NCBI GenBank assembly: GCA_965287045.1 | Contig: OZ336872.1 | Span: 31,124,001-31,188,000, forward strand | Direction of reading: 5' to 3' | DNA from: Carcharhinus amblyrhynchos | Taxonomy: Eukaryota | Length of the DNA stretch: 64,000 nt | Shown here: piece by piece, positions 3,940 through 63,150 of the stretch | Layout of the letters: each line of letters begins with the position of its first letter | How positions within the stretch are numbered: the first letter of the stretch is position 1 | Program-made: the position numbers and the translations under genes | Notes under the pieces: generated by a model | The model's input: only the letters and a program-made list of their open reading frames with translations | What the model was told of the DNA's origin: nothing | Databases searched by the model: none

Positions 3940-4190
3940 ACCTCATGGTGCCCAGGGACCTGGTTTCAATTCTGGACTTGGGTGGCTGGCTGGCTGTGTA
4001 GAATTTGCACATTCTCCCCATGTCTGTGTGGGTTTCCTCCCACAGTCCAAAGATGTGTAGGTTTGGTGGATTAGCCATAGTAAACGTGCGGGGTTATGGG
4101 GATGCTACAGAGGGGAGGGCCTGAGTGGGATGTTCTTTTACAGTTGGTGCAAGCTCGCTGGGCCTCTTTCTGCATTGTAGGGATTCAACA
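3940..4190 (+). mobile_element. V-SINE (HE1-like), degraded
   Basis: CCAGGGACCTGGTTTCAATTC...TTTGCACATTCTCCCC...CCCACAGTCCAAAGATGTG...TGTAGGGATTC. Confidence 0.8.
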
Positions 4191-14597: not shown

Positions 14598-15825
14598 CAA
14601 AAAGCACAGAAAATAAATCAACAGTTTTCTTCAAAGATTCACTTCTACTCTGCAATTTCACCATTAGAATGTCACAAATAGTGTTGACAGTCTCAATGAT
14701 CTTATCTTTCCTGTTTTGAAGTGATTTCATTGTCTCTAGTTTCACAGAGAATAACTTCCTATGTCTTATATGATTCTCATCAGAGGAACCTTTTTTTTTG
14801 TTAGTGCTTCTGTTTCCACCAAGCTGTAGTCATTTTCAACTTCCATGATAAAACTTTTAACTAACTAAACAAATTTGTGTCAATATTTTGCAGCAATTTG
14901 CTGACAACATTAATTCTTTGAAGTAAATGGTTCAACAAAAGAATAAAACAGCAATATTGCACCTTTCAAATTTCTCTCCTAAGGATGATGCTTTAGTTTC
15001 ACACACGGCTTTTTTGAATTTGATTTGGGTATGTTTAATAAGATTTCCTTTATATCACCGAAGCACATTTTCAAAGCCAAAACAGTATCTGCAGGAGCAG
15101 ACCACCTCATGTCACGAATTCTTTTCACTGTGAAATGTTTTCCCTGTGATTGTAATGTATTCCACCGACGTGTGGAAAATGAAAGAAAGTCAAAAAATGT
15201 ATAGCACCTCACAGAATTTGGCTGCAGATTAAATTCATGGAATGACTGGAACACGGGATAAATAATGTGCAGGGGCTTGTATTGTTCAGTCTTCCTTGCA
15301 GACCTGAATAAATTGCATCATTGAAGCTCTGTCCACAACAATTGTTGATGTTTGAGCCTAAATTTACAATGATTTCTAAAACATTTGTCTTCAGACATTC
15401 AGAAGTGTGAGATTTTAGCTGGACAAAACAAACAAATTGCTCTACAAGTTCACCATTGCTGATCACGTATCTTAAAATTACTGTTAATTGTTCCACATGA
15501 CTCACATCTGGTGTTGAATCAACTATTATGGAATAATATTTGGCATCTTTAACTTCATTTGCGAATTGGTTTCTCAGCCACTCTGCCATTAGAATGAAGT
15601 ATTCATAGGTCTGGTGGATTAAAAAGTTGGTCTTCCCTGAGCTGCAGTATTGACAACTTTTCAAAAGACTCTTCGAGAAGCTCATCAAATTCACTGAGAT
15701 ATTCAAAGCAAGATAAAAATATTACCTTTTCGATTTGACAATGATGACTCATCATGTGCTCTTAGAGGTAGTCCCAAAGAAGATAGCAGTTTGACATGGC
15801 AACAACAAACATCATCAACAACATC

Positions 15826-15990
15826 AGATTTTTGAATGGACCTACCTCGCATTAAGTTCTCTACACCCTAGCTATGATTGTCACACTACATTCTGCACTC
15901 TCTCCTTTTCTTTTCTATGAATGATATGCTTTGTCTGAATAGCGCACAAGAAACAATACTTTTCACTGTATACCAGTACATATGACAATA
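15826..15990 (+). mobile_element. Rex/Babar-like LINE 3' end, split by the RTE (remainder 20066-20095)
   Basis: CAGATTTTTGAATGGACCT...AATACTTTTCACTGTATACCAGTACATATGACAATA continues after the RTE as ...ACATATGACAATAATAAAACAAATCAAA. Confidence 0.85.
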
Positions 15991-18900
15991 TGTTGTTGTT
16001 CGTCCATCATCATCGATGAGGACGTCAACGCCATTAGTCATTTTGAGGCTGGTTGCGGTGTGTCCGAAGATGACTGATCAGGCCAATTCGGGCACAGAAT
16101 GTCCTGGCGCATATTGGGCAGACTTGTATAGACACTGTAGTTGTTGCGCTGGTGGCTCTGGACTTGCGCAGCTTGCGCTTAAGTTGTGCTTCAGCGATAC
16201 ACCTTGCTTCATGAGCTTGACAGCCTTTGTGGATGAGGCAGTGCCAGGTAGGACGGTTTTGTGCCAGCGTTTCCCAAGTGGTTGTGTCAATGTCAAGCGA
16301 CTTCAGGGAGGCCTTGAGTGTGTCTTTGAAATGTTTCTTCTGCCCTCCATACGAGCGTTTTCCAGCAGAGAGTTCCCCAAAAAGGAGCTGCTTGGGTATG
16401 CGCTCGTCTGACATACGGATGACATGACCTGCCCACTGGGTCTGCGCTCTCATCAGCAGTGTGTGGACTGGTGGTAGACTTGCTCTAGAGAGAACTTCAG
16501 GGTCTGGTACTATGTCTTGCCACCAGATGCATAATATTCTGCAAAGACAAGTCATGTGGAAATGATTGAGCTGTCTTGCATGCCTTCAGTACACAGTTCA
16601 CGTTTCACAGGCATATAGGAAGGTAGTGAGTACCACGGTGCTGTAGACCTTCAGTTTTGTTGCTGGACTGATTCCTCGACATTCCCATACAGTGGAGCGC
16701 AGTCTACCAAAAGCAGAACTTGCCTTTGCTATTCTGCAGTTAACTTCTGCATCAATAGTCACTGATTGGGAGAGGGTGCTGGATGAGTGAACTGGTCCAC
16801 TGCCTGTAGTTTCTGCCCTTTGATTGTGATATTGGGTTCTCTGTACGGTGCATGAGGAGCAGGCTGGTGCATGACTTCGGTCTTTTTAATGTTGATGGTG
16901 AGTCCAAAGTTGTCACAAACCGTGGAAAATTTGTCCATACTGACTTGCAACTCTGGCTCTGAGCCAGTTTACAGGGCGCAGTCATCAGCAAAGAGGAAAT
17001 CTCTCAGAACAGTCTCTTCCACTTTGGTAATAGATTGAAGTCTCCTCAGGTTAAAGAGCTTCCTATCCACTCTGTACTTGAGGCTGATTCCAGCAACACT
17101 GTCCTGGAAGGCATCATTCAGCAAAGCAGTAAGCATCATGCTGAACAGTGTGGGTGTGAGCACACAGCCCTGTTTGATGCCATTGGTGACTGGGAATGCC
17201 TTAGAGGATTCTCTGCCATCCAGTACTCTGGCCAACATGCCATCATGGAACTGGCATAACATCTGAATGAATTTGGGGGGGCAGTCGAACTTCGACATGA
17301 TCCTCCACAGGCCTTGTCGGCTTACAGTATCGAAGGCTTTCGCAAGGTCAACAAAGGTTGTGTAGAGCTCGCAATTCTGCTCCTGACACTTCTCCTGAAG
17401 TTGGCGCGCAGCAAAAATCATGTCAGTCGTCCCATGACCTTGGCAGAAGCCACACTGTGACTCTGGAAGCAGGCCCTGCTCCAGATGAGTGACCAGACGA
17501 TTTAGCAGGACTCTTGCGAGGGCTTTTCCTGTGATGGAGAGCAGCGAGATTCCTTGGTGGTTGTTGCATACTTGCCGATTGCCCTTCCTCTTTGTAGAGG
17601 TGTACAATGAAAGCATCTTTAAGTTCCTGAAGACTGGATCCTTGCTTCCAAAAGGACTGGAACAACTCGGTGAACTTCTTGATAAGTACAGGACCAGCAG
17701 CTTTATAGATCTCTGCAGGAATGACATCTGCCCCTGGGGCTTTGCCACTGGATAGCTGGCTGACAGCTTTCGTGACTTTGGCTACTACTGGTGGGTCATC
17801 CATGGCACTGTTGATATCAATCTGTAGAATCCTGTCTACTGCCTCATCGTTAATAGATGACGATTGGTTGAGGACGGCTTCAAAGTGTTCAGCCCATCTC
17901 TGCAGAATCTGAGCCTTCTCTGTAATGAGAGTTGACACCATCTGTACTCAGGAGGGGGGGACTCCAGAGAGATTGAGGTCCGTAGAGAGTGTTGAGGGCT
18001 TCATAGAACCGTTTCAAGTTGTTTCTGTCAGTGTATCCCTGTATTTCATCTGCCTTGGCGCTCAGCCAGGCATCCTGCATTTTACGCAGTTTATTCTGGA
18101 CTGTCCTGCGAGCACTGGTAAAAGCATTTTTCTTGGCAGCTGAAGATGGGTCGTTCTGACAGGCCCGATGAAGACGGTGCTTTTCAACAAGTAGAGCCTG
18201 TATCTCATCATTCTCATCGAACCAGTCATGCTGCTTGCGGGTAGAGGGTCCAAGCATCTTCAGCGTGGATATATGGATAGCATCCTTGAAGTATTCCCAG
18301 TCATCCTCAGCGCGAGGGGTATGTCAGCAAGCTTGATTTCTAAGTCTTCAGACAGTGCTGAAGCTATCTTGGAGTTCCTTAGCTTGGCCGCATTGATTCT
18401 TTTCATAACCTTGCTTTCGCCTCTTGGGTCTAATGCGGAGCCTCATTTTGGAGACAATGAGCCTGTGATCTGTCCAGCAGTCTGCACCAAACATGGCCTT
18501 GGTTACTCTGACATCCTGTCTGTCTTTTCTCCTGACAATGACATGGTTGATAAGATGCCAATGCTTACAGCGGGGGTGCATCCAGGAGGTCTTGTTACGG
18601 GTAGGCAGACGGAAGGTTGTGTTGGCAATGAGGAGATTGTGTGCTGCACAGGTCTTCAGTAAGAGTAGGCCATTACTGTTACACTTGCCCACTCCATGCC
18701 TCCCAATGACTCCCTGACAGATCGCAGAGTCACATCCTACTCTTGCATTGAAATTGCCAAGCAAGATCAGCTTGTCGGTACTGCTGACTGCTGATAGTAG
18801 GGCGTCTAGTTCTTCATAGAGCTTGTCTTTCATCTCATCCGGGTTGTTCATTGTGGGGGCATAGGCACTGATCAGGATGGCTTGACTTCTGTCCTGTAGC

Positions 18901-20065
18901 GGAAGCTGTAATGTCATAAGCTGGTTGTCACATCCTTGGGCAGACTGTCAAGTTTCTGAACAAGGTGACTCCTGACGGCAAATCCAACTCCAGCATCACG
19001 ACACCCATCGCTGCTGCGACTGCTCCAGAAAAAGGTGTATCCACCTCCAGTTTCAGTCAACTGATCTACGTTGGCAAGATGAGTTTCGCTCAGGGCTGCA
19101 ATGTCAATGTTGTATCTTGCAAGCTCTCTGGCTGTTGCAAGCTCTCAGGCTGTTCTTCTCTCTGGTCTGTCTGCTGTAGGGTTGTCCAAAACCGTGCGCA
19201 CGTTCCAAGTGCCAATGGTGAGCGGTGTCACCTTGTGTTTTGTGTGTTCAGTCTCAAGATGGGATCCCCGTCAGCTGTGGTAAACTGGCCAGGGTGTAGT
19301 GAAGCAGGCAATGTTTAGGGCACCTTTTCTAGCCCCTTCCTCATTCTATGGAGGTGAGCAGTGCGTTCCTGAAGAGGACTGCTCAGTCGCCCAGGTAGAC
19401 ACTGAGTTCCACTGCTACTTCGGTCAGCGGAAAACGACCATTAGACCTGAGCCACCTGCGTGCTGGTCTGTGACTACAGCTCCCAGTGTATCCACACCTG
19501 CTGCTTCGTCGCTCGCCCATCGCCACAGGACTTCAAGGATTGAATAGGACACTGATGATGATGATGATGGTGTCGAAACTAGAGCTTGATTTGGATTAAA
19601 GCGAGGGAGAGTTGTGCAGCGTCAGCCTCACTCTCTCTTCCCAATTCCCATCTAGATCCAGTGGCAAGACAGTCAGGACGGCTGGAGGTGGGACTAGGTG
19701 CAGTGGATGACCAAGACGTCTTCTGTGTCTTGTCTTGCTCTTTGCAATCCATGATGCTTGCAGAGACCACCTTCTCGACCGTTGGATCTTCCATTGGTCT
19801 CTTCTGCTCAATCCGCTGGACTCTGTCTTGACATGCTGGGATAGACATCTCCCTATCTCACCGAGGGTTGAGACCTGTCGGCTACCCTCACCTGGTTTAG
19901 CCGGCTGGTTGAGGCCGTTGCCCGGGGTGTGTCCACTGTCGCATGCAAACAGCTACGGGGAGCCACAGGTGAGAGCTGAGTGCCAGGTGGGGACAGAGGA
20001 TGGACAAGCCGCCCTGAAAGGATGCGACATGTTTCCCCACCAAAGGTATTACCCCTCCCTGACAA
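15991..20065 (-). mobile_element. Full-length RTE-clade LINE (~4.07 kb), frameshifted
   Basis: APE motifs (IGTWNVRT, SAYAPT, LGNFNARVG, TDHRL), RT motifs (LPESQCGF, FVDLAKAFDTV, KQGCVLTP, LFADD), C-terminal C2H2 finger CPICARTFCARIGLISHLRTH and a (CAA)n tail at 15991-16000. 13-bp TSD ACATATGACAATA at 15978-15990 and 20066-20078. Confidence 0.96.
19885..20055 (-). ncRNA. Candidate HDV-like self-cleaving ribozyme at the RTE 5' end
   Basis: On the minus strand CUCUCACCUG pairs with CAGGUGAGGG (P2), and ACACCCC-GGGCAAC-GGC..GCC-GGCUAAAC resembles HDV P1'/P1.1/P4/J4-2. P3/L3 fits only imperfectly. Confidence 0.45.
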
Positions 20066-20337
20066 ACATATGACAATAATAAAACAAATCAAAACATGTC
20101 AGCATTTTCCTTCAATAAGAACACTTTTTCAATCTGAGCTGATAATGCGGAATCAATTCTTCCAGATAATTTACATCTGTGAATGAACGCATACGTAGCT
20201 TTAGTATGCACTTTGGAAGTTTGACGATCAGCAAAATCTCTTAAACCATTTCTCCAATTGAAGTTCTTGTCGATGAATGTGCGATTCCCTTTACTAGGGT
20301 CAGGCTCAGGGAATAATTTGCAAATAGCAGAGCCAGC

Positions 20338-62211: not shown

Positions 62212-63150
62212 TTTTTAAGTTTGCTGATGACACCACCGTTGTGGGTTGGATCTCAAACAATGACAAGTCAGTACAGGAAAAAGAGATAGAGAATCTGGTG
62301 AACTGGTGTGACAACAATAATCTCTTCCTCAATATCAAAAAAAATGAAGGAGATAGTCACATACTTAAGGAAGCATGTCTACATCATGATGTGGGAATGC
62401 CGGCGTTGGACTGGCATAAACACAGTAAAAAGTCTGACAACACCAGGTTTTAGTCCAACCGATTTATTTGATAATACTCACAAGCTTTCAAGGGGACTGC
62501 CTCTCCATTCACCTGACGAAGAGGCAGTCCCCTCGAAAGCTTGAGAGTATTATCAAATAAATCGGTTGGACTAAAACCTGGTGTTGTCAGACTTTTTACC
62601 ATGTCTACATCAACAGGGATGAATTAGAAGTGGTCAAGAGCTTCAGGTTTTTAGGTCCAAATCACCAACAACCTGTCCAGGTCCCTTCATGCAGACATTA
62701 CAGATAAGAAAGCCCACCAACGCCTCTACTTTTTCAGGAGATCAAGGAAATTTGGCATGTAAGCTATGATTCTCACCAACTTCCACAGATGCACCATAGA
62801 AAGCATTCTTTCTGGTTGTATTACATCTTGGAATGGCTCCTGCTCTGTCCAAGATCGCAAGAAATTACAAAGGGTCATGAATGAAACCCAGTCCATCACT
62901 CGAACCAACCTCCCATCCATTGACAGTTGTCTACACTTCCTGCACCCTCGGAAAAGCAGCCCACATAATCAAGGACCCCCACGCACCCCAGACATTCTCT
63001 CTTTCACCTTCTTCCGTCGGGAAAAAGATACAAAAGTCTGAGGACACGTACTTACTGGCTCAAAAACAGGTTCTTCCCTGCTGCCATCAGACTTTTGAAT
63101 GGACCTATCTTGCATTAAGTTGATCTTTCTCTACACCCACGCTATGACAG
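62212..63150 (+). mobile_element. Rex/Babar-like LINE RT and 3' fragment
   Basis: KFADDTTVVG...KAHQRLYFFRR...ILTNFHRCTIESILSGCITSW...; interrupted at 62387-62599. Confidence 0.85.
62387..62599. mobile_element. 213-bp palindromic Penelope-derived element with hammerhead, 13-bp TSD
   Basis: TSD CATGTCTACATCA at 62374-62386 and 62600-62612. Hammerhead ATTCAC-CTGACGA-A-GAGG-CAGTCC-CCTC-GAAA-GCTT-GAGAGT at 62507-62548. Confidence 0.9.

Follow-up and report, generated by a model that had tools for sequence, protein, structure and literature searches.

RTE, R2, R4, Baggins and Ingi/L1Tc elements are described as carrying 5'-terminal HDV-like ribozymes in the text of PMC5786205 and PMC6765202 (citing Ruminski 2011), and the occurrence of such ribozymes on RTEs is already established. 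For drz-Agam-2-1, a ribozyme from mosquito, the text of Webb et al. 2016 (PMC4908430) reports that an architecture of P1.2 and a long P2 speeds cleavage. Here we analysed a window (the whole stretch of DNA studied, 64,000 nucleotides) that carries an RTE-type element on its minus strand. Like the ribozymes of those retrotransposons, the one predicted for this family lies at the element 5' end and would release the element RNA; unlike them as the text of the same two papers describes them, it has an L3 of 28 nt with a helix, although the figures or supplement of Ruminski 2011 may show one. With drz-Agam-2-1, as portrayed in the text of PMC4908430, the family shares a large structured J1/2 closed by P1.2, short linkers and a double pseudoknot, and its extended P2 has 11 bp plus a bulge against 12 bp there. 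Activity was measured for drz-Agam-2-1, whose text mentions no L3 insertion, and is predicted for the present family. The R2 ribozymes, in the text of Eickbush 2013 (PMC3774820), are similar in their long J1/2, a tolerated reduction of P4, an important G in L3 and harmful P1 mismatches, but their P1 5' strand often comes from the 28S target, whereas that of the present family is element-borne and the elements insert at unrelated sites with TSDs. A two-GC P1.1, the J1.1/4 strand and an 8-nt stretch resembling the L3 of genomic HDV are shared with the genomic HDV and CPEB3 ribozymes, in which, according to the text of bioRxiv 10.1101/2022.09.22.508989, an L3 of 7 or 8 nt goes with a short J1/2, unlike here. 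A helix in L3 is mentioned neither in the text of these papers nor in that of PMC4870747, PMC10879173, PMC8501958 and PMC8495972, although figures, supplements and further papers may show one, and literature searches listed no paper about such a helix; the supplement of PMC5786205 contained none of three 9-nt core motifs, and eight passages for shorter motifs were unrelated. As far as these texts go, an L3 helix together with P1.2 on an HDV-like core would be a new variant.

We propose that complete copies of the family start with a predicted HDV-like ribozyme of ~193 nt bearing a hairpin in L3, which probably cuts the element from host transcripts, and that the window copy, having lost its first 14 bases, is likely inactive; we hold this reading with moderate confidence. 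Direct support exists for the pairings, for compensation in relatives and for the coincidence of element 5' ends with the start of P1.

Host element and family copies

LINEs of the RTE clade have one APE-RT frame, a short-repeat tail, a TSD and a length of ~3-4.5 kb. The window element (Table 1) has a strong RT domain (PF00078, E 4e-22), matched RT clusters at 0.94 in an atlas search, and shows weak APE and C-terminal zinc-finger matches (E ~0.003, below the cut-off), an AAC tail at its 3' end, a 13-bp TSD and a length of 4,074 bp; two-ended derivatives occur in its family. It is probably RTE-type, a label taken from its architecture, characteristic motifs and the original prediction. The window copy lacks the P1 5' strand (2/7 pairs remain) and three P1.2 bases, its P3' reads GAC, and it retains the catalytic C, P1.1 and P4. 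The P3' change, already read as a mutation in the original prediction, is indeed private (1/66 copies, with GCC in 61/66). Because of this mutation and the loss of the P1 5' strand, the ribozyme of the window copy is likely inactive. Among the 66 copies, 21 have a P1 of at least 6 pairs, P3, P1.1 and the core bases all intact.

A first look at the 2.9-Gb genome gave 1,010 candidates for the family 5' end, and the 40 that were scored are 91-94% identical to the window 5' end, the window itself excepted. The 66 unique copies from this genome were picked by similarity, so invariance among them says little on selection; most of their differences look like post-insertion decay, many of them at CpG. 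Their tree is star-like and distorted by internally deleted copies, and does not display the G-type P1 as a subfamily or otherwise.

In the coordinates used below, 0 is position 20064 and negative numbers run upstream on the element sense strand. The common sequence reaches to about -14 in 30 aligned copies, and 32 of 40 copies found with the window sequence start at -14 to -11, in a mapping that is blind beyond -14. Among 20 copies having a 3' end, the TSD ends at -16 to -11 in 13, further upstream in 2 and at -8 and -6 in 2, and 3 are without a credible TSD. In runs X1 and X4, both from other organisms, contigs likewise start at -14; contigs, of which all the compared runs consist, cannot reveal RNA ends. 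By both the TSD-mapped copies and the copy starts, the predicted cut site is the element 5' end.

Several features of the element and its surroundings were also noted. Among 39 fetched copies, six (L040, L042, L049, L053, L069 and L077) stop at element position ~506, within an ATC repeat in the 5' UTR; in four of the six the sequence picks up again at ~3960-3994, so that they are non-coding elements with two ends. This repeat (window 19554-19568) is complementary to a GAT repeat before the 3' tail (16012-16003), with a predicted duplex of -33 kcal/mol for the two regions, a value computed without a shuffle control. Adjoining the element, window 14979-15721 contains broken frames and a weak DUF4371 match (E 6e-7, below the cut-off), and is likely a decayed DNA-transposon gene.

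Table 1 Positions of the retrotransposon and of the predicted ribozyme parts in the window
Feature	Positions	Strand	Remarks
RTE-type non-LTR retrotransposon copy	15991..20064	-	4,074 bp; 5'-truncated by ~14 nt; reading frame broken
TSD, 5' copy, 13 bp	20066..20078	-	Identical to 15978-15990
TSD, 3' copy, 13 bp	15978..15990	-	Perfect match to 5' copy
Single extra T at TSD/element junction	20065..20065	-	Likely untemplated; other copies also have extra letters at the 5' junction
P1.2 5' strand, remnant (7 of 10 nt)	20058..20064	-	Full helix -15.3 kcal/mol in copy L002
P1 5' strand of the original prediction	20051..20055	-	Rejected; inside J1/2 domain
J1/2 domain, interior	19988..20057	-	In one hairpin, L035 and L037 show two-sided changes; remainder forms alternative folds
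P1.2 3' strand, predicted	19978..19987	-	Pairs with the inner GGGGUGU region, 10 bp
P2 5' strand (extended P2, 11 bp)	19965..19975	-	Paired in 95.5% of cells; U-A replaces C-G in L037
P3 5' strand, GGC	19962..19964	-	66/66 copies
Expanded L3, 28 nt	19934..19961	-	Canonical-looking 8 nt (U20, C21, C22 and G25 equivalents), 19-nt hairpin and one G
Inserted L3 hairpin (3' side of the loop)	19935..19953	-	5/5 pairs in 61/66 copies; kept in L033/L038, L035 and L037
P3 3' strand	19931..19933	-	GAC here; GCC in family
P1 3' strand, ACACCCC	19924..19930	-	Partner absent from window copy
P1.1 GG and J1.1/4 GCAA	19918..19923	-	GG 52/66 (12 AG, CpG type); GCAA 61/66
P4/L4	19902..19917	-	Two compensatory pairs in L037
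J4/2, candidate catalytic C at 19900	19897..19901	-	C in 66/66 copies and 4/4 outside loci
P2 3' strand, one bulged C	19885..19896	-	From the covariation model

Outside relatives and the predicted core fold

The window copy passes a loose descriptor only with one P3 mismatch allowed, and such matches occur ~1.1 times per shuffled 64 kb (15 shuffles). Because this is near chance level, the case for the fold is built on the family and its relatives rather than on the window copy. A second descriptor match, at 63026, was unmatched by the covariance model and is chance-like. An Rfam scan of the truncated window copy gave no HDV family among its 6 matches at E<=10, and plain folding of 19880-20060 was no more stable than shuffles (z = 0.34), as is expected because the program cannot form pseudoknots.

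A pattern scan of metagenomes returned 8 loci, four of which are true relatives in three lineages (L033/L038, L035 and L037) with model scores of 54-103 bits; L035 and L037 are ~81% identical to the window family. The other loci (L031, L032, L034 and L036) were discarded as chance matches. The same reading was given to all 22 pattern matches in genome contigs (11 loci) and viral contigs (11 loci), six of which were run through the covariance model and received no score. When the family's own genome was searched by sequence with L035 and L037, the matches belonged to the window's family and none to a divergent one. Because P3, C21-C22, three P1' bases and GGGCAAC were set in the pattern used to find the relatives, their conservation is circular; this pattern placed no constraint on P2, P4, the hairpin, the other P1 bases or the catalytic strand. 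In L033 (375-528) and L038 (322-475) the L3 hairpin is present, P4 is nearly gone and P2 is shortened and irregular, and both loci are without the 5' end.

Covariation was examined in nine rows, namely four own-genome copies picked from the 66, the window and the four outside loci, under a 60-pair model in which 89.7% of 478 cells are paired. Nine two-sided pair changes were found, where shuffles, which ignore relatedness, gave 3.8 (none of 500 reached nine) and slid partners gave 0-2. Seven of the nine come from L035 or L037, and the other two are open to doubt, one being CpG decay in L021 and one a single cell in L038; with three outside lineages, each compensatory change counts as a single event. 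Compensatory changes are present in P1, P2 and P4, and neither P3 nor P1.1 covaries. The original prediction had looked to covariation among genomic copies in P1, P2, P3 and P4; P1, P2 and P4 are borne out through the outside lineages, but P3 is not, and the own-genome copies offer little here because most differences among them resemble post-insertion decay. Unconstrained core folds of L033, L038, L037 and L076 contain P2, P3 and the hairpin, and in those of L021, L023, L029 and L035 P3 is not closed as modelled.

The letters and positions given in the original prediction are all present on the minus strand, among them P2 (19975-19966 with 19894-19885), GGC-UCC, the hairpin, ACACCCC, GG-GCAA, P4 and G-C-U-A-A. 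P2, with 11 bp and one bulge, crosses P1 and thereby makes the first pseudoknot. The 3-bp P3 has 3/3 pairs in 64/66 copies and is broken in the window copy. P3, P1.1, GCAA and the G-C-U-A-A strand have the spacing of HDV, and in HDV numbering the equivalents of U20, C21-C22 and G25 occur as U in 66/66, CC in 62/66 and G in 58/66 copies. The candidate catalytic C at 19900, also part of the original prediction, is present in every copy and all four outside loci, consistent with the role assigned to its strand.

It could be argued that this is a structured 5' UTR whose likeness to HDV arose by chance, and both the lack of an Rfam match and the near-chance descriptor match of the window copy alone would agree with that. 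Against it stand the compensation in P1, P2 and P4, both pseudoknots lying in register, and a position exactly at the element 5' end, which make a chance likeness scarcely credible. The central point of the original prediction, that an RTE-type element has an HDV-like fold at its 5' end, is accordingly upheld at the family level, from the copies and relatives rather than from the window copy.

The P1 strand and the predicted cut site

The P1' strand ACACCCC has three potential partners: an outer heptamer (-13 to -7), an inner GGGGUGU (-4 to +2) and GGGGU at +9 to +13 (20055-20051), which the original prediction had assigned to P1. L035 has U-A at the second P1 pair, in place of the G-C of the others, and there the outer strand makes 7/7 pairs, the inner 3/7 and GGGGU 4/7 (5/7 in the window). 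In L037 the outer strand also pairs 7/7 with P1'. Run X12 has U as the last P1' base (depth 627 of 638) and GGG at -13 to -11 in loose ends, which makes the first pair G.U. Because only the outer strand follows the L035 change, and in view of L037 and X12, the outer heptamer, 22 nt upstream of 20055, is the predicted P1 5' strand of the family. Its start coincides with that of the element. GGGGU is thereby superseded, and the cut that had been placed just 5' of it is off by 22-23 nt, the true P1 5' strand having been lost from the window copy by 5' truncation.

If P1 were instead formed by the inner GGGGUGU or by GGGGU, cleavage would fall further inside and the window copy might cleave. The inner strand makes 7/7 pairs in 41/66 copies with -11.8 kcal/mol, and GGGGU reaches -8.3 kcal/mol. 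However, none of the copies starts at -4 (0/40 and 0/66), the inner strand falls to 3/7 in L035 and would be sequestered in the predicted P1.2 (-15.3 kcal/mol), a start at +9 is seen in 2/66 copies, as ordinary truncation could give, and P3 of the window is broken. We therefore regard an inner P1 as very improbable and proceed with the outer heptamer.

At the family level P1 has 6-7 bp from G1, with 7/7 pairs in L035, L037, L021 and L029 and 6/7 in the majority form. The defect of the majority form is at pair 3, where the 66 copies have 39 C, 9 T, 13 G and 5 A, the C facing a C; among them 7/7 pairs are reached in only 4 and 6/7 in 28. An extra G at -14 is found in 38/66 copies, and in 26/34 of the C/T-type copies. 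The extra C of the majority P1 would be either a C.C mismatch, placing the cut before -13, or a bulge that lets one further G pair, placing it before -14. The bulged-C register gives 7 pairs and -8.0 kcal/mol, against -5.5 kcal/mol for the mismatch. A G at -1 makes a poor substrate according to the text of PMC8495972. Given the energy, the frequent G at -14 and the avoidance of a G at -1, the bulged register, and with it a cut before -14, is favoured under this model. On the other side, several copies start at -13, and since L035 carries the extra G despite a perfect P1, the G at -14 need not pair.

Single P1 mismatches reduce or abolish cleavage in R2 ribozymes, in the text of PMC3774820. The family could descend from HDV-like ribozymes and have lost cutting, at least in the majority form of this genome, with the transcription start setting the 5' end and the fold kept as a template or translation signal. 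The P1 pair 3 defect in most copies and the 20-nt insertion beside the active site would agree with such a loss, as would the extra G in 38/66 copies and L035, which would then derive from a cap, and the finding that in L1Tc promoter and ribozyme are the same 77 nt, as reported in PMC3383444. Yet the catalytic C, U20, C21-C22 and G-C-N-R-A are present in all outside loci, the catalytic strand having been outside the search pattern; moreover, L035, L037 and X12 have a compensated, perfect P1, and the ends sit at P1. On balance, a loss of cutting appears unlikely, and a cleaving ribozyme remains our preferred reading.

The family 5' end from -14 to +13 (L002:1487-1514) consists of three similar G-rich units in series with ~10-nt spacing, and a further partial G-rich repeat lies upstream in L112 and L096/L097. 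The inner of these units may be a second copy of the P1 strand that has been taken up into P1.2.

The L3 hairpin, the J1/2 domain and their proposed roles

L3 has 7-8 nt in the HDV descriptor, compared with 28 nt in the family and 29 in L037. The original prediction had seen a hairpin inserted in L3, and this reading gains from its retention in three outside lineages as well as in most copies of the family (Table 1). It had also expected standard descriptors to miss such an L3; indeed, an L3 of 7-8 nt was found in 0/34 loci and the expanded L3 in 13/34. Within the hairpin, the pair closing CAUG changes from G-C to A-U in L035 and is unpaired in L037, and a U.G becomes U-A in L037. L033/L038 and L035 lack one U-A pair as a whole, as does a contig of run X15 (depth 122, two gaps).

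The expanded loop depends on where P3 closes. If P3 closed on GCU, L3 would have normal length and the hairpin would be open. GGC-(8 nt)-GCU does have canonical spacing with a G.U pair, the arrangement is unaffected by GAC in the window, and P3 offers no covariation to decide. Nevertheless, closure on GCU gives -1.2 kcal/mol in L023 against -4.9 for the hairpin model (3.7 kcal/mol worse), and GCU forms the 5' strand of a stem whose pairs are retained in every lineage; furthermore, GCC followed directly by the 7-nt P1' and GG is the exact HDV spacing. Closure on GCU is thus improbable, and we retain P3 on GCC with the hairpin formed.

J1/2 is predicted to be a structured domain closed by P1.2, both of which the original prediction had overlooked. 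P1.2 is visible in the folds of L021, L029, L037 and L076, with linkers of 3 nt to P1 and 2 nt to P2, and is weak in L035, with 6 of 10 pairs in the modelled register.

Two further complementarities were observed. The L3 hairpin loop (19947-19942) is a self-complementary hexamer around CAUG, likewise in L033/L038 and L035 but not in L037, and loop-loop dimerisation through it is conceivable, as discussed for CPEB3. Window 20030-20023 in J1/2 is complementary over eight bases to 19944-19937 in the 3' half of the L3 hairpin, with a similar match in L037; this pairing is not kept in L035, is a possible misfold and was left out of the model.

In the proposed structure, P1 (-13 to -7 with 19930-19924), P1.1 and P4 would form one stack and P2-P3 the other. 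The 10-bp P1.2 would close a J1/2 domain of ~90 nt, drawing P1 and P2 together as in drz-Agam-2-1, and would hide the second GGGGUGU. C19900 would act as general acid with Mg2+, and the extra hairpin would leave L3 after the position-27 equivalent, pointing away from the active site. If the ribozyme cleaves, L3 would be a third helix-accepting place in HDV-like ribozymes, besides J1/2 and P4. The search descriptors would then change, an engineering site would be gained beside the active centre, and the defined 5' end of a high-copy LINE family would be explained. More tentatively, and slightly short of an even call in our judgement, the family may belong to a widespread active subclass of RTE HDV-like ribozymes with a conserved L3 helix that standard searches miss, and with a bulged P1 in this genome. 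The core would then tolerate two supposedly excluded changes, and ribozyme-headed LINEs would be undercounted in animals.

Compared with L002 and L076, contigs of run X8 that carry the ribozyme core have a different J1/2 interior and, over roughly half of their depth, A at L3 positions 23-24; more divergent families exist in another organism.
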